Assembly: GCA_051362555.1 (NCBI GenBank)
Contig: CM120641.1
Coordinates: 44,770,401-44,834,400 of the forward strand
Reading direction: 5' to 3'
Origin: Lingula anatina
Taxonomy: Eukaryota; Animalia; Brachiopoda
DNA: 64,000 nucleotides
The translations under genes and the position numbers were made by a program. Below, piece by piece: positions 2,124 through 53,512 of the stretch; position 1 is the first letter of the stretch, and each line of letters opens with the position of its first letter. The notes beneath the pieces were generated by a model, which worked only from the letters and a program-made list of their open reading frames with translations, did no database searches and was not told where the DNA came from.

Positions 2124-5100
2124 TTATAGTGCAAGGAAGAATTTTTTGACATACAGGTAATAAGAAACCAAGACCCAAAAAGCAGCACCCCAAAGGTGAA
2201 CAGCCAACAGAGCACCATGAGTGCTTGGGACCTTGAACTGCACGGGAAAACAATTGGAAAACATTTCATGACACACATAGACAAGGATGGAGTTCTTCCC
2301 TGAAATGGCAAACATCAAGATTACGCATTTCCACTTAAAATAAAAAAACATCAGTGACACATCAATGATGATGGAGCTGTAGAGTATTTATGTTTAACTC
2401 AAAAGTATTTTAGTTTAACTGAAAACAGTTTCCCATCAAAATGCACACACATGTATTTCAGGATTAATGAAAATTGATGGACAACAGGAGAAAATATGAA
2501 CTGATTTTTAACACTGTAATTTCCCAATGTCCTAAATGCATGATAACATTAACAATAGGATAGTTACATGTAACATTATAAATTGATGCACATACTATTA
2601 ATGTGGCAGTAATAACTCAGGTGAAAATCAGTATATTTTTCCAAATTTGCTTCTTAATCAAACTTAACAAGTTAAGGGATGATATTGATAACAATGATAA
2701 GCATATTCACCATTAAAAGCAAACTGCAGTTAAGATTTTTTTTTTAGAAAAGCTAACTTCATTTTGATAGTCTTTTTTAAAGAAGTAAACTTAATCTAGA
2801 TGATCTCTTTTTCTAAGAAATTCAAAATAAGCTTTGACCAAATAATAATAAAAATACAATTAAAAAGAACCAAACCTACCTGGATATATGAAAGGAGCAC
2901 CTGACCAGAATTGTTTCACATCTATAAGCAGATAGCACACAATCAGCAGCAAATACGCCATAGAACCAGTGGCCAATACGAAACTGAGCGACCTAGAAAT
3001 TATTGAAGTTTATTTTAATTTAGTTTTACAAAATAAATCAAGTATGTTAGGTTCCCCTTGTTCCCCCGATGGGCAGGTTACAGTCTAGCTTTTCACAGCT
3101 ATCAATCAAGTTTCAGTCTTAAATTTAAGATATATTTTGGTTTCTTTTTTTAAAAACCCACAAGTAAATCTTTTATAAGAATGAATCTCTCCAACTCTGT
3201 TGGTATTTCTAACTTACCATAAATTTTTGTTAATTGGAACCCATCCTTTATTCTGTGAACACTTGGTCAGCAATAGTGCAAGACCTCCCTGGTAATAAAA
3301 AGAAATGATGTCAAATGCATTCTAAAATCTTATTCACTTGTGCATTTACCATTTTTCTGACAAAATAAACTATTCCCTCATCATTTATATGTATTTTTTT
3401 CCACACCTAAATCTGTCAGCCATCTTGTTCAAAACTGAAATAAAGGACATTCACTGGCTACATTAAATTGGCACATTCAACAGTAAGACCAATTCAAGGG
3501 ATGGTAACTGCCAAACTACATCACTGCAACAAAGTTTCAAAAGACAAATTACTAGTTTATACTCACAGTTAATACTGCAAACAGCATTAATCTTAATATC
3601 TTTGAACTATTTTTCCTGTATGTTATCATAATTTTTCCAGCCTGTAAAAAAATGAACAAGTGATTAGTATTATATTTTGCTTACAGATGTAATATGGTTA
3701 AGACAGCCCAGGTGAAATATTGTACTTAAAACTGAGAAAAATTCTATTCTTTCCTGATTCTCTTTATGAAAGTTTTATTTTGTTCACAGCAGTAAATTAT
3801 ATCATCAGCGTGTGTGTGTGTGTGCGTGTGTGCACGTGCACACACAGGTAAATATAAACTTATTTCAACTTACGTGCAACCCCAGGAAGCATATAAATAT
3901 TGAGGTGAGTGTTCCCAATATTCCCTCTGGATCATAAGGTAAAGTGGTGCTATAAACAAACTGAAATGGTATTGAAAGAGAGAATGTCAGGAAAAAATCC
4001 ATAACAAATCAATTCACATAACACACATGAGATTTCAACATAACTGGTATCATTTCATAAAAATTAAAAGCTGTTAACAAAATCATGTCTGTCAAAACAG
4101 TAAAAACTGTTTACTTCAAATGTGTACATTTTTATACTGTGATCTGTATGACTATTACTCTATGTATACAGTATCTGTTGGATCATAGATAAAAAATTAA
4201 AGAGTCCCAAACTTTAAACTCAAATCCACAATAATTCTACGAAGTTTCAATTCACAGCAATGCCACAGGCAAAAAAAAAAAAAAAAAAATGACTCATACT
4301 AGTAGCTTGTGCAAAAACAATCTGTAAAAATATTGAAATTACCACCAGTTGAACTAGTTACTAGTAAAATTTTTGAATTTTTTTTAACATGTTTGTGGAC
4401 AAATTTATTAGCCAATTTGTCAGGTGGCAAATATCTCAGACTGATCTGATAAAATGTTACAAGCTATTTTTGGCAATTTTTATGAGGAAAAGAGTAACAT
4501 TTAGTTTACATCCACGCACGTACAAATGCACACACAATGGCATGATTAAATGAAATACACTACGGGCAATACAAATGAAAACAGTATCTACCCTAAAGGA
4601 AGGGGATTGATATATCCTGTCCCTGCCAAGAATCCAGCGGTCTATGTACCCAGCAACTCCTCCTGTACAATTAGCGTGGGAGCCATTATAATATAAAGGA
4701 CCACCAGGACCAATGTTGCCACTTTAACATTAAAAAATAAAATAAAATAAAAATTTAAAGAAAAAAATTACATACAATAACATATGGACTTTTATTTCGA
4801 TCAAATTCTTCAAACAAATTGTAAATGGTATGTATTTAAAATAAATATCAAATATCTATTTAATGATGAAATGTTATCTAATGTGCATGCATTGCATTAA
4901 TGTGTTGTTACCACTGATGGAGAGAGAGAGAAAGAGAGAGAGCGAGGAGGAGGGAGGGCTGAAGTCCAACAGAGGGAGGGAATGAGAGAGAGAGAGAGAG
5001 AGAGAGAGAGGCAGAGGGGGGGGGGGGGACTTACATATCACAGTCTGGCACTTGAACAGCAAAAGTTACTGCTACATGAATGATGGCACAGCTTAAACCT

Positions 5101-8100
5101 ATGATCCATTCTGGCCAGTACAGCACTATGTCTCGAATTGGATGCCACCATTTGGTCTGAAAAAAAAAGGAAAAGGTGCAAAACCCAAATGTTCCATTGA
5201 TTTATCTAGCATTACAAATTATCATCCTTTCTACATTGTTATCTAAAAAGTATTGAACAGATTCTTTAAACTAGCTCATTTAGAACATTAAATATTATGT
5301 CATGAAGGCATGTACTTGAACCATCTATATTATGACAAAAAAAATTAGCAGGCACTGCAATTGCATAAAGGCAAATTTAATGGCAATTATTATCAACTAT
5401 TATCATTGGTTAATCCATGAGACACCTATTTGATCACAACTATAATCATTGCTTAATCCATGAGATATCTATTTGATCAAAGACACTGTTGCTCTTTTTG
5501 TACAAGTTTGTGCGAAAATATATTCATTTTCAATCAGTCATCACTCATTTTTTTCTTTATCCTTCATACAAATACTTGGGGCTTAACAAGTGAAAAATTT
5601 AAGATAAATGCCAAGTAAAATCAATTTATAAATACATAAAAAATACTGTTTTAAGGTGACTGTATAACAGCTGCCAACTATCCTTATTCTTGTCAGTGAT
5701 GGCTAGACAATCATTTTGACTGAAGAAAAATAATGATACCAATAAAAGCAGGGGTGATGGGAGATGTCTTTTGGGTCTTACGGAAGACAATCACAATTTT
5801 CAAGTTTTCTACTGGAAGACAGTCAAAATGAATGATGGATCAACAAAAAAGGCTATAAAAAGATTGTAGTCTGCTTGCCACTGGTCCAAGACAACTGATA
5901 AGTACACTCGGCATCAAATGGCAAAAACTTGAATCTTTAAAGGTTTCTAGTACAACTGGAAATTTAGGCGGTTGTTTTAGATTATTTTTTTACCATAATC
6001 TATATTCAGATTTCATACATGGACTCATAATTTTTTATTCAAACCAGTAAGAAGCTTTCTGAGGTCTACCAGTCAAAAGCTAAAGCCACAGACTGAGAAT
6101 GCATGAGTGATGTTTCAGAAATTGATCAAATTTACCTGCTGCGGGGGATGTGGAGCATCAATAGAGGCCAGGGAATTACTGCCAAGGGATCCGTTGATAA
6201 GCCTCATGTCGTCCTGAAAATAGCAGACTTTTGCAAAAGTTGCAAAATAGGACTTGGGTGACCAAGGAATTCATTTCAGATCCACCACAACTGATGCAAT
6301 CTGCATCTTCTCTCATCTAACACAATCACGCTTTCTCACAAATTATCTCTTTGGAATTTCTCATTGCCAAGTATGATATAAAATCCAAAGATCAACAAGA
6401 ATTATATATAGATTTTTTTTTTGACTAAGCAAGCAGAAGCATGAAGCTACAAAACTTTTAAGACAATTCAGGTTTCTATGTTCAGCATAAGTGATATGTC
6501 TCAAATAAATCTCAAATTGCTTTTGGTTCAGGGTAAAAACATTACAGCATTTAATATCAGGGTTGATATAGCTAGTTTTTTGTTATCCATAATTTTTTAT
6601 TGGTTAGACCCATAGGTGTTGCCCAATCACTGCTATAAATGGTTGCCTCTCTACAGGACTAATAATCAATTGAAACCCAGGATACAAAAGGGCAGCAGCT
6701 GATAAAAAGGTTAGGTTATGGAATTAGGAATATGTAAAAGGCTAGTTTTTCTTCTAAAAAGCACTTCTGGCAAATTACAAACCCTCAAGCCCATTAATCG
6801 TATTTTTTCACTGTCCTTTTCCCTGCCTAGGAGCAAGTCCTCGCTATTTAAATTCTTTTCCTAAAATACAATAAACAAATCCTTATTCCATATACCCAGC
6901 ATCATCTCCTCATAAATAGAGAGTTATCCTCAGCAAACGGCAGCTATAAATTTGTGAATGTATTATTAAGAACCTGAAGTAGTCCTTGACTTGCCTCCAT
7001 GTCTGCAGGATCTGGGTGGGCAAAGAACATCTCCATGACAGCCAGGACTAGGTATGTGGCAGCAAACCTTTGGAGGACGCCTGGGATACGCAACTTATCT
7101 GGTTCAGTTACTAGAAACAAAGTACAGTGTATATCAATACTGCTTTACTTCATACTTCAAATAAAGAGAGATCTGCATAATACATTTATAGATGAAAATC
7201 ACAGACAGAGAAAAGTATGAAAATAGGTGCAAGGTCATAAGTATATACATATACATGTAAATGTTTTCACATAAGATTAAAATTATGAATTTATTAGTAG
7301 AATAAAGTGATTTCTAAAAAGGGGAAAATAAAGAAACAATATCCTGATGAGAAAAAAATGACATTACAATTATAGAATAAGCATAGCAAAAAACTTCTTA
7401 AATCAGTCTACTGTAAAAGTGTTATAATAGTTAATTAACCAATAATGCGCCGTTGTAAGGGTACAATGTAGCACTTTATAATAAAGATCGTATGTGAGAT
7501 TTTGTCTAAAATCTTCCCATTTTGCCTGTGCTTTTGTTGTTACAGCTTCTGAACACAATTCTGAATATTTTGACACTATGTATAAAAGAGATATATGTAA
7601 CCACCAACTAGGCATATGCCACGTCATGCAAAAAGTGGTCTTAAAAGGGTATATTCATAAAACATTTCCAAGTTAGTAACTCAACAGAGTAACTTCAAGA
7701 ATAATGTTATGGACGCCGGAATTTATTTCAATTTGTCACAAATTCAGTTTTAACAAATTTTGAAAATAAACTTACCAGAATCCTTTGTATTGATTATTAT
7801 TCCAAGTATAAAAAGAACAACTGTTCTGAAAACTATTTTCTTCAAAATGTCCAACTTAGATACTTTGCGTTTTTTCACACCACGAAATGAGAAGGCCATT
7901 GCTGTTCCCATGATAAAAACAAACCTGTAAAGTCAGCATGATTTCATAAATTATTAGTATTTGAAAATCAATATTTCATGTCAACTTATATCGGGAAAAA
8001 AATTAAAATATAAAAAATAATTACTGAATTTAGCCATTGCACTTAATTTTGTGTTAAAAGCCATGCCAGACTATAATCTTAATATACTGCACAAAAAGTT

Positions 8101-11100
8101 TTGCTTAATAAAGTTATCATTATGACACCAATAAGGAAAATACTTTAAACACTGTATGTGAAATATATTTTACTTGTAGATTTGTTATATCATCTCATCA
8201 ACATAAACTGATGGATAATTTAAAGCCAGTGCTAAAGGACAAACCAAAAGCATGCAACTACATACAACACTTAGTACTAATTCCCAGTTAAACTATCATT
8301 TTACTCAGATGGATCAAACCCAGTGGGGACATTTGCTGAATGCAATCAGATTAACACCTCTTCTCTTGTTTCCAACATACTCATATAATCATCATTTTTT
8401 CTGTATTCTGCTAGAGCTAAGAAGAGGCATGTTTATCTGATAATAACCTGATTGTATTCAGCGAGACAGGAAACAGGGGCAGGTTTGACAAAAGAAGTTT
8501 GACCCCATTCCCACAGACACTATCGGTCTACGTAGATCCAACTCTTGTGAAGATTCTCTTTGAGTACAGTCAGCTTAACTGAATGACACGCCTAGATTAA
8601 AGCAACTACTAGCTTAAAGCAGACTAAAAATGTTAATTTTAAAGTTTAGACCCACTTTCCATCAGATAGTCTTCTGTGGACCAAAACAAGGAGTAGAGTA
8701 ATGAGAGAACATACCAAGGAAAAACAAGATCTGCTACAGTAAGTCCATTCCATGCAGAGTGGTTAAAGAACCAGTAATGACCTCCGCCATAATTCACAAA
8801 GATCATCACAGTTAGTGCTAGTCTGAAACATTAGGCAGAAACACACATAGAGCACAAACAGAAATCAGTAGCCAAATAGTTGTCACACAAAAGCAAAGAT
8901 CTGGGACCTGTTTCACAAAAAAAAAAGTCCCGTGATTTTGTCTAGCCTAACTGGCTCAAGTTAAGACGGCTAAACTCCAAAAGCCAACTACCAAATGTGT
9001 AAAATCAAACTCTGTCATGTTGGTCAAGATCTAGGTATGCTGCCCCTTAGTTTCTTTGTGAAAGACAAAATGGTTAGCTAACATTCTTTCCAGACTTTAC
9101 CAAGATCTAATTTTTTGTGAAACAGGTTCTGTAATGAAGGCAGACGGGGTGTTGTAGTCAGGTGACAGGGTACAAGAACTCTTCACAGCAGAGATGACTG
9201 AAGAAGAATCTCTGTGATTTATTCCCACTTTCTGTAGTATTTTAAAAACCAATTAATACAAAAAATGGTAAAATTTGATCATTGTCTTTTAATGAAATAT
9301 TCTACTTCCAGACATATTTTCTATATTTTAATGTTAGAAAAATGACCCTCTACAATTCACATGTGAAAATCCTTAACCTTCCCCCTTAAATATTTATTTT
9401 TATCATTTCAAGCTTTTTCACTTTTTCAGTCATCTCTCGAAAGTCTTTCTGGCAAGAAGCAACTGGTCACCTGACCACCTATCTCCAGTCACTCACCATG
9501 GGAACACCAAGTCTGCTACAGTAAGGCCATTCCATCTTGAATGACGGAAGAACCAGTATTTGCCACCCCCATAATTTACAAAGATCATTATTGTTATTGC
9601 AATGCTGAAATAGATTTAGATAAGTCATTATGTATCAATAAACTTTACTGAGATTAAAGAAGTAAACTTGTCTCTGAAAGTATAATTCCACATCTTAGAA
9701 AATTTGTGTTTTTCTCATTTGGATTAAAATCTACTTTTCATTGATAAGTGTAATCCTTGAATCCCTTACCCTCTGAAAGCATCCAGTGAGTTGAGCCTTT
9801 CCTTAGATTTATTGTTTTCTGGTTGTTCTTCATTTACAATTGTTATTATGCCAAGATCCTAAAATCAAATGCTTTGATCAATTTTAAGACAGTAATCACA
9901 ACTTCATTCTAAACAATTACTTTGAAACAGAGAGATATATCTATCTTTATATAGTAAAACTGAACAAATAAAAATAAAACCTGAAACACTTCAAAATAAA
10001 TTTTATCAGCCTTAATTGACACAAACTCAGTTAGATATTCAGTAACAAAAACATACGCCAGGATAAAAAAGTAAGCTAGAAATTCTAAACAGTTTACTTA
10101 CTGTGGTCACCAGGTGGTCAGACTGCATACAAAATAATTTGTATATATACCCTTTCCTGCAGACCAAAGATAAATTGTTTATATCATGATCAGAATAGAT
10201 AAAAAAATATAATTTTTGGATCAATTCATAAATAAAAAGAGGCAAATTTTCAAAACCATGGTCTTACTCCCAATAATTTGTTCTCCATACATTAACTGGG
10301 TTACAGATAGGTTATCCAAAGATATAGGTTGTGAATTTGCTCAGATATTATTATAAATTCTGATTAAATCTTATCCTACGGATTATACTCTCAGACGCTT
10401 GCCACATAATTTCTAATAAGGTTTTATTAATTGTCAACATTTATTTACTCAATACTAACAGTCTTTACATATAATTACCTTATTAGGAATTTCAAAAAGA
10501 TCCACAATAGAGCTAAGGCCACAAAAACTCCAATAGCAACATAGATTGCTGAAAATAAATATAATCTAAAAGGCACCATTTCCAATTTTTGTTTTGTGGA
10601 TGTACACTTTCAAAAAGGGAGAGAAAATTTACTCAAAATGACAAATAACAGATTTGTCAACTCGAATACTGACTAAAGTTTTGTCAATCACCCGTAATTT
10701 TCTCCTTTTTTGATCATTTAATACAGAAGCAAGAAACTTTCAAATCACCCTTTCACAAATAAAAAGGAGGAAATCCCATAAAGGAGGACTAATCCCATCT
10801 CTGTATTGTATGATTTAAATACTCACGTATATTACTGTCCCAGACCTCTGAATCTGGAGTAAGATTACATGTGCTATTCCCAGGTAGGTCTTTCATTATA
10901 TATAAGGAATAATTTCCACACTCTTTAAATGAAAAAGAGTCAACTCTGAAAAAAGATAACAAGTATATTTTACAATTAAATGAAATCATGTGATACAGAT
11001 ATGAAAAATTGTGAGCAGAGGTGTTATCCATTGTGAGGGGAGGAAATTGCTTGACCTGCATAAGTAGATGTTAGATCATTTTCGATCTCAAAAGCAGATT

Positions 11101-12814
11101 CAGTCCATTTTAAGACTATTGCTGTAATGATTAAGACCATGTTAGATCATTTGTTATCTAAAAATGCACTTTAAGACCAAATCAAGCACACTAGTGTCTG
11201 TAGTACCTGCATAATTCAAGGATAGTGCCATTGGGCCATGCTGCAAAAACCATCAGAGCCACTGGGTGCTGTGTATCCACTTTCAGATCAACATTTGAAT
11301 TTTGATGGAAATAAAAGACTCCCCCAGTTGAGCTGTTCAGGACAGGCTGGTACTTACACTGAAATATTAAGACAAAATGAGACATTAACCACCATTTGGA
11401 GACAACTGACTAACCAATCTGGCATATGGCTAGAAAAAATGCTTTTTACAAGAAGTTGTCAGGTTGAACTAGTGGATGTGTAAGTGGTTGTATAAGATTA
11501 TTTTACTAACTTCTATAGATAGACCTCATCTTCAAGCTGGTCAATTTTAATATTGATAAGTGCTTTCTGGGGAATTGTCTTTGTGGGATAAAAATTTAAG
11601 GTAAATACTATGAAGATATTTGGTCCATCAAATCTTTGACAACATAAATAATTTACTTTCATCACTGATATCTGAAAAGGTATAATGAATAAATCGCCTT
11701 CAAAAAAATTAAAAAAAAAAACTTTATATCTCACCAACTGAAGTTTTTTTCACTGAGGCAAATGCTTCCATTTTACTTCCACAAACTTTTTCGCAAAGAA
11801 AAGAATGAAAACCTAAGACAAGACTAAGGGTGCTTTCCCAGAGATTTAGATCGATCTAAAGATTAAGATTTAGATCTACCTAACTCCCTGGGGGTTCACG
11901 CTAAATTGCAGTCAGCCGAGCGGGCACCATAGTTAATTACCCCTTACAGCTTTTAGTAGGCGGGACAGACGCCGGCCAAGCTGACAGTAATCTAGTGAGA
12001 CTCCCCACAGGGTTAGATCGATCTAAAAATCTATGGAAATGGGGTGTAAATTATATTCTCTTTTGCTCCCTTTCAACCCATACTACCAGAAGTCAGATAA
12101 TAGATCCCTCACAATAAACAAATCATACTTCATAACAAACATCAGACTTGTATTCCAGCAAAAACTCCACAGAACTGTCTGGTTTTTCCACAGTGATATG
12201 CACATGAAGCAAAGCTTCATCCATAGTGCAGTCTGCATGGTGAGTCTCATGGACAGGGGCTACTTGGTATGCTGAAAGAACAATAATAATAATTCCAATT
12301 CCTCAGTGATAACAGTTCTTAACAATGATATAATATGCCTTCTATACATCTGCTTGTGTTAAAATGTAAGTAAAAACATATGGACAGACATAGTGATCTA
12401 AATTCAATATACTGTACAAGTAATTTGTAAGGATAACTAATAAGGTAATCGAACACTTGACAAAATTGTGCTCGAAGTTGGTTTCAAAATGTCGTGTAAT
12501 TTTGCAAACTAGAGTGCCCTAACAAGCTTCTTTTAGATTTTATATGTATTGTCTGTTCAAAGTGAAAGAGAAAACGGAAGAGAACCATAATAAAAGTGGC
12601 TTTGTCGATTCAAAACTCAGTTAAAACAAGACTTCCGCAGACGACCAAGCAATTTATACTGTTTGGCATCTATCATATTTACTCATATTTAAAGAACAGT
12701 ATAATGAATATAAACCCTCAGTCCATAAAAATACGCACCTTTAACTGGAATACACATTAAAAGTATTACAGCAAACATAGACCAAAAGAGCGTCAGCGCA
12801 CCTGCACCCGCCAT
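2124..12814 (-). CDS. HGSNAT: Heparan-alpha-glucosaminide N-acetyltransferase (lysosomal transmembrane acetyltransferase), multi-exon
   Basis: Phase-consistent exons assembled by hand: 12739-12814, 12129-12271, 11207-11358, 10827-10945, 10479-10548, 10102-10156, 9770-9858, [9497-9604 or 8715-8822], 7776-7924, 6995-7110, (6136-6213), 5035-5156, 4592-4721, 3874-3960, 3567-3641, 3218-3288, 2880-2992, 2124-2299. The translation has a signal peptide and the family motifs [19 protein letters not shown], [22 protein letters not shown], [41 protein letters not shown] and [10 protein letters not shown]. Confidence 0.97.
4982..5010. repeat. (GA)n microsatellite followed by a G-run
   Basis: Direct reading. 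Confidence 0.9.
6136..6213 (-). CDS. Candidate 78-nt cassette exon in HGSNAT ([26 protein letters not shown])
   Basis: ctattttcag acceptor, CAG|gtaaat donor, phase 0-0, no stop codon, and GC-richer than the surrounding intron. I recall no counterpart in vertebrate HGSNAT. Confidence 0.55.
8715..8822 (-). CDS. HGSNAT: HGSNAT active-site exon, copy B ([36 protein letters not shown])
   Basis: 108 nt, acceptor ctaatgtttcag (branch-point-like CTAAT), donor gtatgt, phase 2-2, open reading frame. It is paralogous to 9497-9604. Confidence 0.92.
8904..9129. mobile_element. Harbinger-like MITE / inverted repeat between the duplicated HGSNAT exons
   Basis: GGACCTGTTTCACAAAA ... TTTTGTGAAACAGGTTC is a 16/17 inverted match, with CTG at both flanks (possible 3-bp TSD). 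Confidence 0.65.
9154..9478 (-). other. Bipartite long-range intronic inverted repeat next to the donor of HGSNAT exon copy A
   Basis: 9154-9166 pairs with 9466-9478 (13 bp, one G-U in the pre-mRNA). 9190-9206 pairs with 9421-9437 (16/17). The two pairings are nested correctly for one stem. Confidence 0.8.
9497..9604 (-). CDS. HGSNAT: HGSNAT active-site exon, copy A ([36 protein letters not shown])
   Basis: 108 nt, acceptor tatttcag, donor gtgagt, phase 2-2, open reading frame in frame with both flanking exons. Confidence 0.93.
11828..12046. mobile_element. PIF/Harbinger-like MITE with TAA TSD
   Basis: TAA flanks at 11825-11827 and 12047-12049, imperfect TIRs with TAGATCGATCTA palindromes, and related copies at 23212-23539. 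Confidence 0.75.
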
Positions 12815-14805: not shown

Positions 14806-16035
14806 CTATCTCTTTTGTGATTTTTTTGCACCTGTCTGTTTGTCAAATTCCTTCACAGCAGAAATAGCTTTCAACACCGATGTAAACTGATTATTCCTTT
14901 TTTGTCTTGCAAAAGCTTTCGTTTTAACAGTAATCGACATCAGTTCTGAGAGGTTTTCTTTACTGGTATGTTTGCTTTTGTAAGAATTCCAGCGGGATAA
15001 CAGTTTCGTAAATTCTTTATCTTTACTTTTTACGTCCGACAACTGCGGCAGGCTGTGTCGCTTACGTTCAGTTTGGTTGTCTTTTTTCTCCGTTGAATTT
15101 TGGGATTGCTCTTGGTTCTCATCTTCTTCAGGAATATCCGGAACATGACCAAGCTGTGCCGGGGCGTGGAGAAAAGCGGCCCCTTTTGATTTCATGTGTG
15201 CTATGGAGGGTAGTTTCATCTTCTTGAGGGTTATTATAGCTTTCTTTAATCCTTCGCTTTTTCCATAAAGTGATATAGTCGATGAATATGGCATAGGTCG
15301 CGCCTTGCTCATGTAATTACCTTCAAACAACACATTCCCCTTTTTCTGTTTAGCATTAAATTCGTTTTGAGATTCCACAAACTTTCCAATTTTGGACTGT
15401 AAGGTTTGTTTTTCTGTTCTTTTTGGTAGTTTTGGAAGAGCTGGCAAGACAAAAGTTTCTTCTTGAATTCGAGGAAGATTGGGCTCAAAGTCACAATTTT
15501 GCGTTATGAACAAGGTCGATGCACTTTCACTTGAATCTTGGCTGCTTAATACTTCAAGAGTTCCTTGTTGTTCTTCGAGACATTCGCTCCCCGACAACGT
15601 GTCCGGCAAGCAATTTAGTGACGTGCAACGATCTGGCAAGTAAGAGCCAGACTCTTGCTGTGCTTTCGTGTACGTTATATCCGACATACTGTAACTTTTC
15701 TTACCGCTTCTTCGAACAGTTGTGGGTATTTCTTCATTTTCTAAAACGTTGGCTACAAAATCTGCGATTTCGTCCAGTGTGTGATCCTCTAAAATTTCCT
15801 CCTGCCTGTCTTCTATTTTCACTTTCTTCGACTCGACTTTTTTAGAATCGATGTTAATATCTCGCAGACGACTCTTTTCTTCTACTTTTATGGCAAACTG
15901 ATCTAACATCCCTTTGCTCTCACATGTTTTGTGTGCAAGTAAATAACTTCTATTTTTCTCTGCCGTGCGAGAAAATTTCAGATCATAATACAATGTGCTT
16001 TCTTCTGTCTGTTCGTCAAGGTTATTAATCGGCAT
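14806..16035 (-). CDS. Intronless uncharacterised 409-aa Lys/Ser/Glu-rich protein
   Basis: A 1230-nt ORF in otherwise stop-dense DNA. AAGATGC start context, an in-frame stop about 21 codons upstream, and no domain I recognise. Confidence 0.75.
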   Translation of the reverse strand: MPINNLDEQTEESTLYYDLKFSRTAEKNRSYLLAHKTCESKGMLDQFAIKVEEKSRLRDINIDSKKVESKKVKIEDRQEEILEDHTLDEIADFVANVLENEEIPTTVRRSGKKSYSMSDITYTKAQQESGSYLPDRCTSLNCLPDTLSGSECLEEQQGTLEVLSSQDSSESASTLFITQNCDFEPNLPRIQEETFVLPALPKLPKRTEKQTLQSKIGKFVESQNEFNAKQKKGNVLFEGNYMSKARPMPYSSTISLYGKSEGLKKAIITLKKMKLPSIAHMKSKGAAFLHAPAQLGHVPDIPEEDENQEQSQNSTEKKDNQTERKRHSLPQLSDVKSKDKEFTKLLSRWNSYKSKHTSKENLSELMSITVKTKAFARQKRNNQFTSVLKAISAVKEFDKQTGAKKSQKR

Positions 16036-17760
16036 CTTGTCGTTTAAGTAGAACGGAGAAAAAGTCCCTTTATCCTTGCAAACTTTAAACAGGCTCTATG
16101 CTTTTTCCGAAAACGTTAATCGTAATTATGCATCTTTATGTCCAAGACAAGAATAACAGCGAATGTCACAGAGCATCTTTCGAATACATATATTGTAGAA
16201 GCAGGGACTTGTCTCTTGAGCTTCATTTCGTTTAATACCAGTAAGTATTTCTCATCAAAAGCGGTAGCCAAGGAAGCGCTCTGGCGACATTGTAAAGGTG
16301 CACCAAACCCACGGAGCAGTGCAAATATCACAACAAATGAAAGCGCGCATGATTGTTGTTCTTGTCATACGAAATGACCCGGAGTATATTTAGCTAAGCA
16401 AGGTGTCCAAATGTTTTCACACACATTGCATGCGATCTGCTAACATTTAGTTTCTAATGGGTTGGTATATGATAACAAATATCAATATTTAAAGATACAT
16501 ATTAAGCGAGTAGACATGTCAAATTAATAATATACCCGACCAAATAGTCTGAAATATTTTAACTAAAAATTGGGTTTCGTTGCATTATTTTCTTTCGTGC
16601 CATTTTTGCGATGCAATACGAACTGTAGTGACGGATAAGGCCAATATTATGAGCAGAAATTTAAAGGTGCATTTTTAAGTTTTAAATCCTTTTTCAGCTG
16701 ACTGAGTAATAAACTAGGGTTATTTTTATTTCTTTATTATTTTTTTTAGCAGGTGAATTTTGAGGTGCGTAAGAAACTGGTACTAGTAGTTTGTTTGCGC
16801 CACAGGGAATTTACACACCTGTATTTTCGCTTGTTATGCACCTTTAACACGCTGGAACGCTTCATTGCTATTACAGAATCTCATCACCAAAGCTAGTCTC
16901 CATCTCGTGCTATATTTTAGAAGATAAGGGCAGCATAACTTACAGCTGGACTTGGGCATTGCCTTCAATAAATAAAGGTTTAACTTTTTTTCAGTTTTCA
17001 AAAACATTTCCGTACAAATTTCCGATACCCAGAACTGTATGAGAACATTCATGCAACAGAATCACCTATAAAAAATTTCAATAAAATTTGGCTTCATGTT
17101 TGTAGAAAGGTCAAGTATGTGTACCTCACGGATCTGATTTTTTTTTGTCAGGACTTCTCCACTTCATTAATTTCTACACTGAAAGATGAATACAGCATCT
17201 AAGTGGTCCTGTATGCACAAATACTTATGCTGATATATATATTCAGTCCCCTGCTGTATACAAATATAATAAAATCTGCTCAAAACAGTTCATTCTAATC
17301 CTCCAATCCACCATGAAAACACACTGCTCTGCCTTAGTGCCCAGTATATTTTTATCTTTTTTTCCCCCTATTATAATTTCTATTGCCGTAGGGCTATGCT
17401 GTACTGTTGGCAGTGTGCAAATAATTACTTTATCATTAGAGAATGAGTAAAAACGTGAGCTTTATAACAATCGACATGTCTTTTTATTTGATACACAATA
17501 AATTACTGTCCCAGTGTGTTGTCAGAGATTAAAATTCAAATGCACAAATAACAATCTAAACACATGAGTCCTTCAGTAACACATCTATGTAGAGTGTGTG
17601 ATTCTATTCAGTGGTCTTGACAAGAACAAACCATCAATGTGATCCTGCATATCAACTAGCAATGTTTTTCATTACAAAATCTAGTCACAGAAAATGAGGC
17701 TTCAAAACAACAGACGTATTGTCAAGACTTTACATGGTTTAAAATTTCAGTAGTCCCCTC

Positions 17761-25100: not shown

Positions 25101-26434
25101 TAACTTCTAAAATAATGCCCCGATTATGCTGATTTTCGAACTCAACCTACATTTTAGTAAGACTGACCACTCCTGTGAGTTTAATGACAATTGGCCTATC
25201 TGTTTTTCTTATATTGTGTTTACAGTGTTGCATATATGCTGAAAAATGAACAAGACAGCACTGTTCTGAAATGGGTTTATTTCCATTTTTAACACTATTT
25301 AAACATAAAACAAAATAAACAGTTTACTGCAATTTTTATATGATCAACTAAGAAAATTGATGAGATGGGGAAAATATCAAAAGAACAGTGTTAAATGTCC
25401 ATTTTCCTCCGTTCTGAGATTCTGAACAAAGTGAATGATTGAATCTGACAAACTGCAATGATATGAGTTTATTTCCATTTTTGACACTTTATTACACAAT
25501 ACATGATAACAAGTTTACCATCATTTTTACATAATCAACTAACAATGTTGTAAACATGCAGGAAATGTCAAACAAACACTTTTATGTATCTTATTAGTTC
25601 AATAATGAGACTGTTAATATGCCTAAGAGTTGAATTTGAGGAAATGTGAAAAAACAGCATAACTTCTAAAATAATGGCCCAATTATGCTGATTTTCGAAC
25701 TCAACCTGTGTTTTAGTAAGATTGCCCACTCCTGTGAGTTTAATGACAATTGGCCTATCTGTTTTTCTTATATTGTGTTTACAGTGTTGCATATATGCTG
25801 AAAAATGAAAAAACAGCATAACTACTAAAATAGTGGCCCGATCATGCCGATTTATGAACTTGACTTGCGTTTTAGTAAGATTGATTACTCCTGTGAGTTT
25901 CATGACAACAGGCCTAACGGATTTCCTTAAAATGTGTTTACAGGGTTGCATATATGCTGAAAAAAGAAAAAACAGCATAACTTCTACAATAATGGCCCTA
26001 TCATGCTGATTTTCGAACTTGACCTGCGTTTTATGAATATTCATCAGCTCTGTAAATATAAAGCCAAAAAGTAAAACTGTCCTCCACTTATCGTGTTTAC
26101 AAGGAAAGTGCACGGCATCGGCGACGGCATCGGCATCGGCATCGGCGACGACAGACGCAGGTGATGGCAATATGTACAGACACATCTGTGTCTGTACATA
26201 AAAATGTTGAAAGCGCCCACAGCGTGATTTTTGGGCTCCTGATATAAGAGGGTAATACTGTCTTCAAGTTCAAATCCTAGCCAAGGTGGTGTGCAGGATG
26301 CGTATCAAAATGCAACTGCCTTGTTTTATGCAGCAGTATAGGAGAAAAACATTAATGATAAGTCTTAACGTATCAATTTATAACTTACGTTTCATTATAA
26401 TCGCACTGTTCGCAATTCGCCTTAGTGCCGACAT
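17761..26434 (-). CDS. Small single-pass membrane protein, probably a diverged complex I accessory subunit (NDUFA3-like), 86 aa, 4 exons
   Basis: Exons 26389-26434, 21978-22049, 18742-18834 and 17761-17810, all GT-AG and all phase 1, total 261 nt: MSALRRIANSAIIMKQRDTLKDYFYELPALTFSTIVSTAGCIAYYFWKKDMFEDEANYKLKNFKYVRTYTVVRREDVDNPSEPYYN. The pattern ExP + one TM helix + YxVxRxxD recalls NDUFA3. The gene model is strong, while the identity is an inference. Confidence 0.75.
18380..18560. repeat. Degenerate foldback repeat shared with ~8335-8595
   Basis: CAGCTTAACTGAATGACAC...CTCTTGTTTCCAACA is present in both places. There is an internal inverted match GTGTGTCTTTCAGTTAAGCT. Confidence 0.55.
19089..19132. 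repeat. (TA)n microsatellite
   Basis: Direct reading. Confidence 0.9.
19158..21357 (+). mobile_element. Helentron/HINE (pearl-like) non-autonomous element with internal tandem repeats
   Basis: Starts AACAAG with subterminal ATGTACAGACA. Internal ~335-bp then ~160-bp repeat units, a GACGGC microsatellite, and a 3' hairpin TATGTACAGACACA-tc-TGTGTCTGTACATA (21325-21354) followed by an A-run. Confidence 0.8.
23212..23539. mobile_element. Two adjacent Harbinger-like MITEs (family of 11828-12046)
   Basis: Arrangement is TTA(23209-11), full copy, TTA(23426-28), inverted internally deleted copy, TTA(23540-42). Confidence 0.75.
23750..26203 (+). mobile_element. Second copy of the same Helentron/HINE-like element, internally rearranged
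   Basis: Same AACAAG...GCTGTCAAATGTACAGACA start and identical 3' hairpin (26171-26200). There is an extra truncated end module at ~24215-24441 and a duplicated internal block. Confidence 0.8.
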
Positions 26435-26498
26435 CTTGAATTTGGCATTGGAGCATGCGCATTGCCCTGACTTTTACTCCCATCTGACATTATTCAAA
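26435..26498. promoter_or_regulatory. Ultra-compact bidirectional promoter with NRF1-like site GAGCATGCGCA (26451-26461)
   Basis: 64 nt separate the divergent ATGs at 26434 (-) and 26499 (+). The motif is one mismatch from GCGCATGCGCA. A YY1-like CAAGATGTCGGC overlaps the minus-strand start. Confidence 0.7.
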
Positions 26499-28324
26499 AT
26501 GTCAGCCCACAGAGAGGGGCAACGTGAAAATAGTGCTGGTGATTTCTCTAAAATATTTGACCGCGAAGGAAAGCCTTGTAGGGCTTGCACAGACATGCAG
26601 ACTTACAGAAAGATGATGGCACTGAAATTTGGCCAGAATGTTCTGGTAGTTAAATTTTTCATTTATTTTGTAAAGTTGTACACCTTTCGCAACAGCAACA
26701 CTGTTGTTACAGTAACTGCTAGTACAAAAGCACTAGTAACGACCTCATACAGATATCCGATGGTAATTAGGAATGGTGAATCTCTGCTGATTTATAGTGT
26801 TTTTTTTAGGAAAAATTTGAGCTGTTTACAAAAATCTGGTGATCGGATTATTTTATATGAAAGTTATTGAATTTTTGTCTTTATGTATAAAAATCATTGG
26901 GTATATTGATATTACCATTCTTAATGTCTGCATGTATTCATCCTAAAACATAAGTTTCGATCTGCATTTTTTATAATTACATTCAAAATTTGCTGAGTGG
27001 CTCTGTTTGGTAAAAGAAGAAATGCTTGAAAATGCTGCTTACATTACATCCACACACACGTATCTTTGCAATGTCTTCATGATGTTGCGTCATCTTTGGT
27101 TGACATATAAGTTTGTTGCATTTTTATGTGCACATCTGTGCATGTCTTTGGCTGTCACCTAGATCAAGTCATTGAACCTTTAAACCACAGAATACAGCTT
27201 AAAAATATACCATGTCAATCAGGCCCGTAGCCGGGGGGGGGGTCTAAAGAACCGCCCCTTTTGCTGGGAAAAGGTTCACTCTGGGTAAAATTTTATCAAG
27301 GTACATGTAGTTTTTATGGGAAAAGGTCCACTTTTTCAAAAAACGAACCCCCCTTTTGAAATTGCTGGCTACGGGCCTGTCAATTATGTATGAATAAGCA
27401 AAAATGTTCATTAGGCTTGGTAGTAGGATCATAAATGAAAATATCAAACACAAGCTGAAATACTTACATACCATTAGCTTACGGCCAACCTGGACCAAAG
27501 CCTTCATCAGACTGATATGAATAGATGTTGACACTCATTGACTGCTAGTTGGTATAGCAGCAAGGACCCTCTTGCAAATGTCAGGTAACCCCCCCCTCCC
27601 CCATTCATAGGTAGCTGGTGAAGGCTGATGTTGATTGCTTCTCGTATCTTACACGATATTGATTGCTTCTCGTATCAATCAATGGATCGGATGTGATGAA
27701 CAGATCATAAAAAGTCATAAGAAATTTTTTCTTGTTCCTGAAATAAACAGTCCAATAATCATGTTTCTCATGCAACTTACAATGCACTCCAGTCTGACCT
27801 GGTAAAAGTGATATATAGGGGCCCTTCAAAATTTTGGTTGGAGTAGGCATTGGGCTGCCCCTAGGGATGGTTCTTTCTATTCTTATGTTATAACTCTTGG
27901 TATCTCTTTCTACACCATAAATTTAGGGAGTTGAAACTTTAAGAGATTGATAGACCAATCATCAGTGATATGCATGGGCACTTCAGAATTTTTTTGTACT
28001 TTGGGTGGGGCTGTCCCCAGGGATAGATGATTTTGATTTTTGGTATTGTAGTTTCAGCTATTTCCTCCTAAACCATTAGAGCGAGGACCTTCACATTTGA
28101 GGTATCATCAGGGAGTGCATGTGTACTTCAGAATTTTAGTGCATTTTGGGCCTGGGGGTGGATAATTCTGCTTTGTTTACATGAAGCACCGATACTTTTT
28201 CTTATGCTGTTATTATATACTTTTTTTTTTACATTTACATGTAGGACCCAGGCATTGTCATAGATGTCAAGGGTGGAGAAGTGCAGAGGTGTGGGGTGGC
28301 AAACTATCAACACCATTTACTTGC

Positions 28325-28365
<41 letters not shown>

Positions 28366-29354
28366 CAGGCACACAAGCAGGCACATACATCTAAAACAAC
28401 AAATCAGGTCATTGAATCTGAAGAAGTGACAGAAAGAACAGACTGCCCATTGGAAATACATGAACTTGGAAGAAACACTTGGTCATTCTTACATACTATG
28501 GCTGCTTACTATCCAGATAGGCCTACTGAAACACAGAAGGAGGACATGAAAAATTTCATGCATTTGTTTTCAAAATTTTATCCTTGTGGAGAATGTGCAG
28601 AGGATTTGCGTAGACAGTGAGTTATCGTCCAGTGTCCTTTCAGTCTGCAGTTCAACAGACCTTTTCATGCCAAATGATACATGTATCATTTTTTATATAA
28701 ATTGCAAAATACTTGGGAGGTAGATTAACAGTTTTATAGTCCGTATTGTTTGGTTGTGATTGTTGCTGGAAGCTTACTTGTGAAAGAGAGTAAAACCACT
28801 GACAGGGCAGTAACAGTCTAAGTGATTAAATACAGATACATGTCCTGCTTGAAGTGGAACAGCCTAAAATGCATTTTATCAAAATATTATTGATTGTTTC
28901 AGTTCAGTTAAGTACAGCATTACACCTAGGATTAGTTTCACATTATTTAAAGGAGTTCATTTGACTCATAATAATGGGATTTAAAAAAAATTAAGTAGAA
29001 ATACTGATAAGGAGACTGATAATTAAGTATGTTATCTCCTACATTTAGATGTCAATCATGAAGAAGGAAATAGTCAAATGCTTTTGTAAATTGCTTCTTT
29101 TTAACCACTAGAAAAAAATTAAAACTGAAAAGAAATGCTAACATATTCAGGGCTTACATTAATTGTAAATGCTGTATTTTCTTTATTTCAGAATAAAGGA
29201 AAAACCACCTACTACAGAATCCAGACATCAGTTAGCACAGTGGCTTTGTAGGATCCACAATGGAGTGAATGAAAGACTTGGGAAACCAATATTTGATTGT
29301 AGCAAAGTTGATGAAAGGTGGAGAGATGGATGGGAAGATGGAAGCTGTGATTGA
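26499..29354 (+). CDS. GFER: FAD-linked sulfhydryl oxidase ALR/Erv1 (mitochondrial intermembrane-space disulfide relay), 3 exons
   Basis: Exons 26499-26645, 28369-28616 and 29192-29354. Motifs: KPCRAC shuttle, [28 protein letters not shown] redox Cxx[21 protein letters not shown] (CX16C), [11 protein letters not shown]. Confidence 0.97.
27220..27379. mobile_element. MITE with perfect 13-bp TIRs and a 5-bp TSD in GFER intron 1
   Basis: CAGGCCCGTAGCC...GGCTACGGGCCTG, with TCAAT at 27215-27219 and 27380-27384. Confidence 0.85.
28327..28364. repeat. (TTA)n microsatellite abutting the GFER exon 2 acceptor
   Basis: Direct reading. Confidence 0.9.
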
Positions 29355-30500
29355 TGTCTACCTCTAACTGAAATCTTATCACACAAATGTATACTCCTTT
29401 TTGTCCAGTTTAAATCAAGAGAAGACTCAAATTGTGAAAAATAATGGTGGTCATTTTAGTTATGTTGGAAGCAATTTTTTATCTACCTGTTTGAGGAACT
29501 GTCAATAACAGGAAAAAAATTATCATGTTCTAAAATACATAGTGACGTTGCTCAACATGATTGTCAGTAAAATGTTTACTACTACAAATTTTATTGAATG
29601 TTTATTTTGTAAATATTTCATAAATTGGATCTTATTATTAAATATTTTTAAATTAATATAGTGTGTTGTTTTACAGAGATCTTGTTATTTGATTATTTAT
29701 CAGTCATAATTAACAAAACGCACAAAAGTATATTTGAGTTTTATTGCAATACTATGAAAGATTTAACATTTCCTTTCTGTTTTACACATTCATGTCGATC
29801 AAATTTTAGCTATTATCTTCCTTTATTGATTTTAATTAATCAGTAGACTAGCCTTCTGTCTTTTACCAACATGACTAGTTTTTGAAGTCCTCACAGGCAC
29901 TTGATTTAATATCACATTTATTACAGATGACAGAAGACTAATTTCATTCTTTTAGCTTGCCAGCTGTGGCCAAGTTTTACAGTCTGCTCCTTTCAATTCC
30001 TTTGAAATGAGTATAAATAAAAAAAACCAAACACATGTTCACAAGCAAAATTTATAGATAAAGTGGCTTTTTTCATTTTAAGATCATCATGATAGGATAA
30101 CCATTTACAAAATAATGGTCAGTTGAAACTAACAAAAATCAGTAAAATATTTTTTTAACAAAAAAGTCCAGAGGTTATTGATGTAACACCTCTCAATATA
30201 AAAGTGATATTGGTACTACTGTTGTTTATTTAAAACATTTAGTTCTTTTATTAAGTAAGTTTATTTGGCCGTACTGCACCCTTTCCTGACTTTAAAAGTT
30301 TGTTAGTCAGAACATGGGCAACAGTTTTTTCAAACACATACGTAGTTCATTATTATTTGATCCCTACCATATATGTTGGTAAAAAATTATTTATATACAT
30401 ATATAGCTATGCCTGTCCATCAATACAGGAAGCTCTCTAATACACTAGGATCCCGTATAATGAACATTAAAACAAATATTCAATATGACATCATACAAAA

Positions 30501-35869
<5,369 letters not shown>

Positions 35870-36773
35870 CTTTGGGGATGTTTTTGTGCCCTTTGCCCAA
35901 AATTCACTTCAGGTAAATTTAGAAGAAATCTGGATAGAAAAAAAAAATAAATAAAATGTGAGTGATTCACACCATTTCAAATAGTCTAAAAATATATAGT
36001 GGAACTTTAGGCAAACACATATGGCTTCTTTGAAAAGAAATTAAAACCATTAACTTTCTAGCATCCTCACACTTATAACTCTACACTGACTCTTGCCTAA
36101 GAAAATTACTTAAAATTATCTTAATATAATTATAATGGATTTTGCGCCAAATCTAATTTTTCTTGAGATAAAACACAACCATAGCTCGACTCATCCCTGC
36201 ACTTGGATTTGATGTTTTGTATCATTTCTAATGAAATTACTTTATTACTTTTATACATATCATGATCCATTCTGACCGCCACATATTCGGGTAGTCTTCC
36301 TGAACGTCAGAAATAATATCATACCGACATCAGAGATTTTTTTTCTATTTGCGGAGTTTAATTGTAAGGCCTGAACTGGGAGAAATAAGTAACTTTACAA
36401 GTTATGTCGACATAAAAATAGGACTCTGGACCGTTCTAACGCGCAGAACATAACATTAATCTGACCAAAATGGTCTACATCATTAGAAAATACCATCTTG
36501 AAAACATAGTAATTAAGACATGACACATTCCGACTCCACGGTAATTTAAAGTGCAGAGAAATAGTCAAGAAATTCTTTTACATCTTGCTGAATAGATTAA
36601 TTCCATGGTATACAAACCCAGACTACATCGCGTGACTTCTAAATCTGTAATCAACTTAGGCATTGACATGTACTGTAATTAACTCGACCTTAATCTAATT
36701 AACACAAGCAGCATATCTGCTTAACACCAGCAATGTAATAAACCCTAAACTGTTTTGAATAGGTAACACTTAC

Positions 36774-38200: not shown

Positions 38201-41200
38201 ATGGAGATATTGCATATGATCAGAGATGAACTCAATATTCATCCAGGATGCATACGACTAGTATCGTGCCATAGAGCTGTCTGCTTGGTGAGTGTTTTTA
38301 GATATCATAGCCAATACTTCAGGTCAATGTCAAGGCCAGTTTACAATATCAACAATGAAAAAAAAAATCAGATTTATGATTATAGTGTAAAGTGATTAAA
38401 CCATTCCGTTATGTTCAGCTGTTGTCACTCCATTATATATATGCAAAGAAAATTCATTTCTGTGTGATATATAATTGAAATGATCTTTTTTTAAAACCAT
38501 CGCGTATTGTTATTTGTAATCTACTCTTTTCGTGATGGAGTCAGTTGGTACGAGTAAATTATTAACGTTTACGAACGTTAATTAATTTAAGGTCAACAAT
38601 TTATACAATATTTCTTGGATAATGCCGGTTTTAAAAACTATTAAAACAAGAAAACATGAATTGATTATCTTTAGATTTGAAGTTATTAAATAAAGCTTAT
38701 CCCTGAAATTTGGAAATTTTAAAAAATACAGTGCAATGCCAATTTAATCCTGTAAAATTTTGTCAGTTTATACAGTAACTGGCTACTGTTTCTTCTATAG
38801 GCCATTGGATTCTTTGACAAGAGTATCCTTTTTTTCTGCACAGTCATTATGTGAAAAAGAGTCTTTTGGTTTTGACAATAATGGTATTCAAATGACCCAT
38901 CATACTATCATAATAAATGATTATCTAATATTATCAATGTCAGATGACATTTTGAGTGTTTTAGTAGTCAATTATTATTCAAGCCCCAATGTAACAATCC
39001 AAATTAAACACTTCAGAAGTGTCTTGATTAACAGATATTAATAATAATGAAAATTATTATTAGTTTTATTTTAATATTATTATTTTAATAATGATATTGA
39101 TAATAAATAACCATAATGAAGAAACCAACAACCATTTGTGAAAAAGTCCCACTTTGTCAATAGTGAACATTCTATATTACTTTTACAAAATATTTCATAT
39201 TATTTTTGTATGCACATGGTGGTAAACAATCCTGGTTACTTTTGTTTTAAAGGTCCAAACAGAATGGTTAAAAAAGGCATGCAACAAACACAAAATTCCT
39301 ACAGCCTCCCGATACAACCACAGCCTATCTGAGATTGAATATGAACGACTACTGGCAGCTTCTACAACCGATGTCCCTGAACCGTGGGAGCGGATCAGTG
39401 TAAAGGTCATACAGAAAAGAAATGAAAAAGTAAAATGGTAAGTTATGTGATATTTCAGAATAATATAATTTCATTTATGGTGGCAAAACTTTTCATTTAT
39501 GTACCGATATTGGTTATTTTCAGTTCAGTAGTAAATTAATGCAGTACCAATGGTAGATCTGTGCATGAAAATTGCATGTTATGAAAAAGAAAACGTGCTG
39601 CAAAAGCTACTTTATGGTAGAGTGAAAGTATGAAGTCTTATGATTTATTGTATTTTTCTTTATCAAATTTATTGATAACCCAAATTATTTATAACCCGAA
39701 AGAGAAACTTAAACCATACGTTTTTGCTTTGTTCAATAATTGAAATATGGCAAGAGGAAGTCACTTAATTTGAATGTCATCAAAATAGTACCATGTAAAG
39801 AAGTTATATTTGCATGAACATTATATAAAACCATATTGTATAACAATTATCAAAGGTTGGGGAGATGAGTGATAATAAAGCAAAATATATATATAATCTG
39901 ACTTGGATTGTTATGCCTTAGTGAAGGATAAATAAATGTAAGGACGTGCAGTTTTCTGTTTCTTTCATTTGTATCTTTTTGAATCACTTTGAATAATTGT
40001 AATCATCAGCATGCATCTGTATTACTCATCAGACAGGTGTTGTCAGTAATGTTTGGAATGGTGCTATTGCTTTGCTGGTCAAATGCATATGTTGTGCTCA
40101 TGTTGGTTATATATTTTGCAAAAATATTGATTTTTTATTCAAGCAGAATCACCATCACATTGTGAAATATATTTGACCCATAGTATTTGAAGGGTTTTAT
40201 ACTTTCTTTGAATTTTTCAGCTTTCCTGAGAGTTTTGGACTTCCTCATCTTGAAAATGGGCTGATAGATTCCTTGGCCTATGTGACAGATGAAAACTACA
40301 GACGGTCATGGCAGAATGCATTTGAAAGGTTTGGAAGCTGTGGAAGAAATCTAGAATCATCTACAGCACCTCCTGCAAAGGTATGGCATACATTTTCTCT
40401 GACTCTCTTTTGCAATGAAATCTCAAAACTTTTTGTAGGTGGGGAATTTTGTAAGAATTATGTGTAGTGTGCATTTGCTTCAATTGAAGCTATACAGTTA
40501 AAAAAAAAAAAACTTACAAATGTGCTTAGTATGTTAACTTTAAACTGTATGCCATCCATATTTTATTATTTATCAAAGGATGTTTGATTATTATTATTAT
40601 TATTATTAAATATATATTTTTTAATTTTCAGCCCTTTTGTGATTTTGTTAGAGATGTAATTCAAAGACTTCACAACTGTTCCATCTATCCACTGAAAAGT
40701 TTTGAAAACGGAAGAAGAGAAGGAGTGCCAGAGAAAGAAGAAGAACAAAATGACATCTCTCAACTGGACTCCCCACACCCAAACCTCATCCCCTTGTATT
40801 GTGCGTTTGAATCAGACAGTGCATTTTACCTTTTACAGCCATATATGACTTATTCGCTGCAAGACTGTGTCACTCTCAGTCCTGCCATATTAGGCAACTC
40901 GTATGCCAAACCACTATTCATTGTGTATCAGATCCTCCATGCATTGAGGCACCTTCACAACAAGGGGCTCTCCTTAGGAAACAGAAAACTTCGTGATATT
41001 TTAATCGATAGTAAACTTTGGGTGCAGTGCAGTTATCCTACAATGAAAAGCTTGACAGAAGATGTTCTTTATGAGTGCCAAAAAGATCCAGATGAAATAG
41101 CAGTAAATGCAGAGGGGAAAGAAGTTACCTCTTCAAACTCTTCAACTGTTTTGACAAAAAGGTGCTCAACAATTGAGAATGGCGAAAGAGGGGAGGGAAA

Positions 41201-49570: not shown

Positions 49571-49601
<31 letters not shown>

Positions 49602-50984: not shown

Positions 50985-51040
<56 letters not shown>

Positions 51041-53469: not shown

Positions 53470-53512
<43 letters not shown>

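Follow-up and report, generated by a model that had tools for sequence, protein, structure and literature searches.

The HGSNAT gene of Lingula anatina carries two tandem versions of its catalytic exon, 8A and 8B, and probably gives rise to two enzymes by splicing in one of them. Both versions keep the same catalytic residues. They differ in a luminal loop beside the catalytic histidine, which is basic in 8A and neutral in 8B, and this difference is predicted to tune the binding of the acceptor sugar or the response to pH. The gene lies on the minus strand of a 64,000-nucleotide stretch of DNA, the whole of which was analysed and is termed the window here. HGSNAT is the lysosomal enzyme of Sanfilippo C, which acetylates terminal glucosamine across the membrane and has one accepted substrate. 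Isoform pairs of this gene sit unremarked in RefSeq models.

Gene model and catalytic block

HGSNAT was modelled with 18 exons from 12814 to 2124 (Table 1). The splice sites were canonical except for one GC donor, and the frame was open for 639 residues with either 8A or 8B. The GC-AG intron after exon 10 (6994, minus strand) was spanned by 21 reads from four runs. Exons 1-6 encode the N-terminus, the luminal domain and TM1, with RNA joints at 10945/11207 and 9857/10101. In exons 10-18, the equivalents of R372, D497/E499 and H614/E615 were kept, which are acceptor-binding and luminal-entrance residues. Over 520-650 columns, the protein was 42-48% identical to annotated mollusc HGSNATs. For the placement of the gene, the best identity was 45%, to Patella. 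Two trees put the gene outside the molluscs, but a placement among gastropods (AU test, p 0.14) or among bivalves (p 0.10) was not rejected.

The sequences of 8A and 8B aligned without gaps to residues 277-311 of human HGSNAT. Human N286, H297, D307, M282 and F310 fall in this swapped block, and all five are kept in both exons. In PMC11199644, H297 and D307 of this block are described as a dyad, M282 and F310 as gating residues, and N286 is placed in the block as well; the eLife paper numbers N286, H297 and D307 as N258, H269 and D279 (PMC11357348). The first-pass annotation of this DNA had located the catalytic His269 and Asn258 in this human segment; these are the H297 and N286 of PMC11199644, and the assignment holds. 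A Pfam search with the 35-residue segments of 8A and 8B gave no match.

Table 1. Features of HGSNAT and its neighbourhood, in coordinates of the window
Feature	Position	Strand	Description
Exons 1-6	10102..12814 (12814-12739, 12271-12129, 11358-11207, 10945-10836, 10548-10479, 10156-10102)	(-)	Open model
Exon 7	9770..9858	(-)	Shared upstream exon, joined to 8A or 8B
Exon 8A	9497..9604	(-)	Catalytic exon of 108 nt, phase 2-2, with a basic loop (K..R-H-S-R, charge +3); predominant in the runs read
A-B intron	8823..9496	(-)	674 nt
Candidate regulatory tract	8823..8900	(-)	UG-rich, AG-free for 76 nt before the B acceptor
Exon 8B	8715..8822	(-)	Second copy of 108 nt, phase 2-2, with a neutral loop (H..N-H-S-A; charge 0 as K/R minus D/E); minor form
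Candidate pairing site	8461..8485	(-)	Pairs with 9496-9467 just after 8A, -32.4 kcal/mol
Exon 9	7776..7924	(-)	Shared downstream exon
Exons 10-18	2124..7110 (7110-6995, 6213-6136, 5156-5035, 4721-4592, 3960-3874, 3641-3567, 3288-3218, 2992-2880, 2299-2124)	(-)	Open model, RNA joints
Intronic repeats	11500-12050, 8324-8615		Inverted ends; draw many other-locus reads on both strands
Open frame	14806-16095	(-)	429 codons, just upstream of HGSNAT, no Pfam match
Erv1/Alr gene	26256-29500	(+)	
Ankyrin and EF-hand gene	30500-35900	(-)	Presumably ANKEF1-like
BEACH/kinase-like gene	39200-55700	(+)	Presumably WDR81-like
Tandem repeat	57300-58800		Units of about 290 nt, near-identical ORFs

Sequence of the two exons

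Two 108-nt phase 2-2 exons had been annotated at these positions in the first pass, and both were recovered there, flanked by AG and GT and with the same translations. Their acceptors both read ...TTTCAG, and their donors are GTGAGT (8A) and GTATGT (8B). The exons were identical at 80 of 108 bases. An exact recount over the 35 full codons gave 15 identical codons, 14 with synonymous changes and 6 with replacements, equal to the earlier count of about 14 synonymous and 6 replacement changes. The replacements are I/L, I/L, I/V, K/H, R/N and R/A. Based on the Nei-Gojobori method, pS was 0.70 and pN 0.13, with a Jukes-Cantor (JC) dS of about 2.1 and a dN of 0.14. Synonymous sites were near saturation, and protein, length and splice sites were intact. 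Mutually exclusive tandem exons are marked by adjacency, homology, equal length and phase, and canonical splice sites, and 8A and 8B have all of these properties. The introns flanking the two exons showed no similarity apart from short AT-rich matches. A degenerate exon-end pattern matched exactly twice in the window, at 8A and 8B, and not once in 100 shuffles.

The duplication was confined to this exon, as had been claimed: in the window, tblastn returned a single match for each of the 17 other exons. HMMs of the whole protein and of the last exon found no second copies of other exons, with only 2.1 kb past the stop lying within the window. An assembly artefact, which had been named as a possible refutation, can be dismissed for 8B because the exon was found in raw reads, joined to exon 7 in run X8 and with its own upstream intron in run X2.

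A stop codon across the A-B junction

Double inclusion of 8A and 8B cannot be excluded by a frameshift, since both exons are multiples of three. A Trp codon is split at the end of each exon, where its first two bases, TG, stand; since 8B starts with A (8822), joining 8A to 8B creates a TGA across the junction. This stop, which the first-pass annotation had missed, falls on codon 268 of the model, with ten exons still to follow, and blocks productive inclusion of both exons. The A+B product would be removed by nonsense-mediated decay. Skipping both exons leaves the frame intact and gives 603 aa that lack the catalytic His.

Decay is described as unable to enforce exclusion where exons are multiples of three (PMC6071210). 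In contrast to this rule, the stop across the phase-2 junction of the window could enforce exclusion despite such exon lengths. A junction stop across a split codon would be a simple means of mutual exclusion for multiple-of-three exons. Metagenomes scanned for genomic exon ends yielded 23 loci, 12 of them under 3 kb, and none had two copies. Two of these loci, L001 and L007, lie on different contigs of one assembly; one carries a basic exon and the other an acidic exon that starts with G, so that the junction stop is not universal if the two form a true pair.

Transcript evidence

RNA evidence was drawn from seven raw-read runs under the same species label, with 6-26% of each run read and a threshold of 3 reads per joint. 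Exon 7 was joined to 8A in X1 (8 reads), X4 (10), X2 (4), X3 (4), X7 (1+6) and X8 (1+6), with 0 reads in X5; "+6" stands for reads counted with a nearby difference. Joints of 8A to exon 9 were found with 3 reads in X1, 4 in X4, 17 in X7, 0 in X2, 1 in X3, 4 in X5 and 14 in X8. The two joints were located at 9604/9770 and 7922/9495.

Use of 8B, joining of 8A to 8B and skipping of both were judged in X2, X3, X5 and X8, in which all 13 joints were listed, at low depth. A joint of exon 7 to 8B was detected in X8 only, one of these four runs, with 3 reads from 2 starts. It was listed as 8823/9773 with two letters between, and was interpreted as the canonical joint in a sequence that has a synonymous change at 9772. 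Joints of 8B to exon 9, of 8A to 8B and of skipping both did not reach 3 reads among the 13 joints of these low-depth runs. The share of 8B in upstream junction reads was 3/10 in X8 and 0/8 in X2 and X3 together. Sense depth on 8B was 0 in X2, X3 and X5; the reads of X2 on 8B were antisense and ran into the intron. In exon 9, X7 and X8 showed about 10 differences from the window in 100 bases, and X8 may be a sister species. The use of 8B was thus observed in a divergent lineage and not in the window's own.

Among the junctions that the first-pass annotation had singled out, 9770>9604 and 9497>7924 were seen and 9770>8822 was seen in X8; 8715>7924 and 9497>8822 stayed below the threshold in the four runs with all joints listed. 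The mutually exclusive use that it had proposed is supported by the A-only joints, the exon 7-8B joint, the A+B stop and isoform pairs in 19 other species.

The same block in other species

Isoform sets were obtained from protein searches and from 30 clusters picked for having several members. Of these clusters, 16 contained a species with two or three versions of the His block. Pairs from 19 species showed 6-17 differences within the 36-residue block and 0 outside, at the same or nearly the same length. They belonged to eight gastropods (Physella, Biomphalaria, Babylonia, Littorina, Pomacea, two Haliotis with three versions each, and Patella), eight bivalves (Magallana, Mercenaria, Ruditapes, Argopecten, Pecten and three Mytilus), two chelicerates (Tachypleus and Stegodyphus) and one sea urchin (Lytechinus variegatus). 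The evidence from these species consists throughout of predicted protein models, and not of genomic DNA or RNA. The blocks are read as exons because they match the block of the window exactly and because four models are without precisely this block. In these models, Mercenaria X4 and X7, Tachypleus X3 and Stegodyphus X6 (P0376, P0310, P0417 and P0420), the whole His block is missing in frame, and the products would be catalytically dead. Two block copies in a row were present in one Caerostris model and in the genomic ORF P0005. The more basic copy was upstream in all three cases in which the order was visible, namely the window, P0005 and the spider model P0006.

A single version was found in the clusters of Liolophura, Ostrea, Mytilus californianus, Bradybaena, Gigantopelta and Octopus as well as Apostichopus, Tubulanus, Ornithodoros, Branchiostoma and Schistocerca, where annotation may miss a minor exon. 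Nine full-length HGSNAT ORFs of 590-620 aa, each called as a single gene on a long ENA contig, were bivalve-like and are possibly intronless retrocopies (P0082, P0062, P0096, P0173, P0283, P0285, P0288, P0216 and P0219). P0161, an ORF of a B-type exon, was listed on a contig equal in length to that of P0082.

Other parts of the gene also varied between isoforms. Two homologous alternative last exons of about 55 aa with 30-41 differences were present in limpet, oysters, clam, scallops, mussels, abalone and chiton (P0370/P0266, P0291/P0384, P0381/P0274, P0398/P0399, P0273/P0401, P0363/P0263, P0126/P0011 and P0276/P0279). They cover the H614/E615 region and, combined with the choice of the His exon, would allow up to four enzymes. 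A second last exon was not found in the 2.1 kb past the stop covered by the window. In Apostichopus japonicus (P0044/P0134), X1 and X2 differed only at residues 313-351, in the exon after the His exon, which represents a different either-or pair of the same gene.

Age and origin of the pair

In the exon tree, 8B of the window grouped with most neutral forms of molluscs (98 SH-aLRT/63 bootstrap). The same grouping was obtained without the four charge columns (92 SH-aLRT/80 bootstrap). The B forms of pulmonates and the second forms of spiders fell apart from the other B forms. The features of B may be retained ancestral states and not marks of one duplication. Near-identical B forms in gastropods and bivalves suggest that the duplication does not postdate the split of these two classes. 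This split dates to the Cambrian.

Loop charge

Loop charge was calculated as K/R minus D/E over a span of 13 residues that includes the 10 preceding the His and the 2 following it; this gave the values for 8A and 8B in Table 1. Among 17 pairs, the two forms differed by 3 or 4 in 13 pairs, by 2 in three and by 1 in one, a spider pair. A difference of at least 3 was found in 12 of 13 mollusc pairs and in the window, compared with 10% of the background, which comprised 11,437 pairs of homolog segments that differed at 6-13 positions; as the isoform pairs share ancestry and were labelled after the charge was seen, these figures describe persistence and carry no p-value. The pair of the sea urchin, one form of which has a one-residue insertion, showed 0 charge difference and was kept out of the 17 pairs and the exon trees. 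Limpet, abalone, oyster and two clams had D-H-S-D versus K/R-H-S-K/R or K-H-S-I. Across molluscs, the contrast was reached by varied residues, with D, N, A, G or T before the His and D, I, T or S two after it. The replacement of basic residues around the His pointed out in the first pass (K to H, R to N, R to A) was thereby borne out as a charge contrast conserved in sequence.

Homologs from a choanoflagellate, slime moulds and a sponge had a neutral or acidic loop like B. The four vertebrates listed had +1 or +2 like A, with +2 and a Ser two after the His in human. Single-form invertebrate homologs ranged from -2 to +3, which indicates that the loop sites tolerate change. Human K291, K296 and S299, which occupy the variable positions, are unnamed in the main texts of both structure papers (PMC11199644, PMC11357348).

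Choice between the exons

The choice between 8A and 8B would be set by splicing regulators or RNA pairing. Steric exclusion was ruled out, as the A-B intron is too long for it. Inverted repeats were present in this intron (9478-9466/9166-9154, 9437-9421/9206-9190 and 9127-9111/8922-8906), and the fold of the whole intron was not above that of shuffles (z = -0.18). The B acceptor had 14 UG in its last 80 nt, the highest number among 18 acceptors, with TGCATG inside the stretch. We take the UG-rich stretch and TGCATG to resemble CELF and Rbfox sites, respectively, as candidates.

The candidate pairing of Table 1 was matched by 1/300 shuffles, 3/162 real chunks (itself included) and 0/59 best-over-window shuffles. 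It would loop out 8B, like the downstream docking sites described in PMC6071210, and is a weak lead: it covers the donor of 8A itself, and the site sits between two pieces of a repeat relic. A matching selector after 8B was not found, the value there being -19.8 kcal/mol. For an upstream docking site, pairing of the intron between exons 7 and 8A with two later introns was no better than in 15 shuffles.

Proposed function and alternatives

Under the preferred reading of two enzymes with differently charged loops, both isoforms would be active. The basic loop of A at the luminal mouth would suit polyanionic heparan sulfate or shift the pKa of the His. The neutral or acidic loop of B would be an older state that was kept for less-charged or cationic glucosaminides or for another pH. 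In PMC11199644, catalysis is attributed to H297 having a low pKa and to the acidity of the luminal cavity. The residues flanking the catalytic His lie outside the explanation of the structure papers, and these alone are changed by the natural isoform pair. Kept across gastropods and bivalves, the pair offers a natural test of what determines acceptor preference and pH range, and might bring a second physiological substrate of HGSNAT to light.

A bolder version, possible although rather unlikely, has the B enzyme acetylate terminal glucosamine on a second class of substrates, namely glycans that are uncharged or cationic, for example oligomers of deacetylated chitin. This would be the ancestral job of the family, and A would be the heparan-sulfate specialist that vertebrates kept alone. 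HGSNAT is reported to accept a beta-linked glucosaminide analogue (PMC11199644), which makes a chitin-derived substrate conceivable; our literature search found no paper linking HGSNAT with such a substrate. If true, a splice switch would have been held for about 500 million years, locked here by the A-B junction stop, and an unrecognised lysosomal glucosaminide pathway would be revealed.

The charge of the loop may also be irrelevant to function. 8A and 8B would then be mutually exclusive, both active and functionally equivalent, with charge drifting and the pair kept by regulatory subfunctionalisation alone. The identity of all known catalytic residues in the two exons is consistent with this, as are the single-form homologs with any loop charge and the sea-urchin pair without contrast. 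We consider it unlikely, because the contrast recurs in 12/13 mollusc pairs through many residue solutions against a background of 10%. It is improbable that 8B serves to turn down HGSNAT, be it through a subunit of reduced or no activity, for instance in the dimer, or through a transcript destined for decay. The enzyme is described as dimeric (PMC11199644), B was minor in the runs read, some models skip the block and A+B ends in a stop. However, 8B keeps N286, H297 and D307, the B-only frame is open, and B resembles the sole form found in the choanoflagellate, slime-mould and sponge homologs. Decay of 8B into a rarely spliced relic in the window's species would agree with the lack of sense reads on 8B in 3/4 fully listed runs and with the origin of the only B joint from a divergent lineage. 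It is nevertheless very improbable, given a protein, length and splice sites that are intact at near-saturated synonymous sites and equivalent forms in 19 species.

Comparison with known systems

The two-enzyme reading differs from the situation in human HGSNAT (PDB 8VKJ, 8JKV, 8TU9), whose structures contain one form of the block, with K291, K296, S299 and a loop of +2. Shared with human are N286, H297, D307, M282, F310, R372, D497, E499, H614 and E615. HGSNAT was absent from human catalogues of tandem-exon substitutions, as far as the main text of PMC9741552 and one supplement file of PMC8373072 cover them. Our literature searches found no description of the exon pair for HGSNAT; genome-wide exon tables in supplements could include the event.

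Old duplicated exons beside a binding site are also described for KHK (PMC9741552) and for exon 10 of the oyster alternative oxidase (PMC5589949). In both, the catalytic residue is likewise kept and its neighbours are changed; the enzymes are different from HGSNAT. HGSNAT 8A/8B is an old tandem-exon substitution of the kind described for coq-2. Exons 6a and 6e of coq-2 in helminths, molluscs and annelids are exclusive exons of equal length that encode the core of a membrane-embedded transferase, and the pair is common to several invertebrate phyla and absent from mammals, with a single or repeated origin being possible (PMC7434440). In coq-2, the 134-nt exons are a proven substrate switch between ubiquinone and rhodoquinone (PMC7434440), whereas the HGSNAT exons are multiples of three, carry the catalytic His on the swapped exon itself and are known from sequence.
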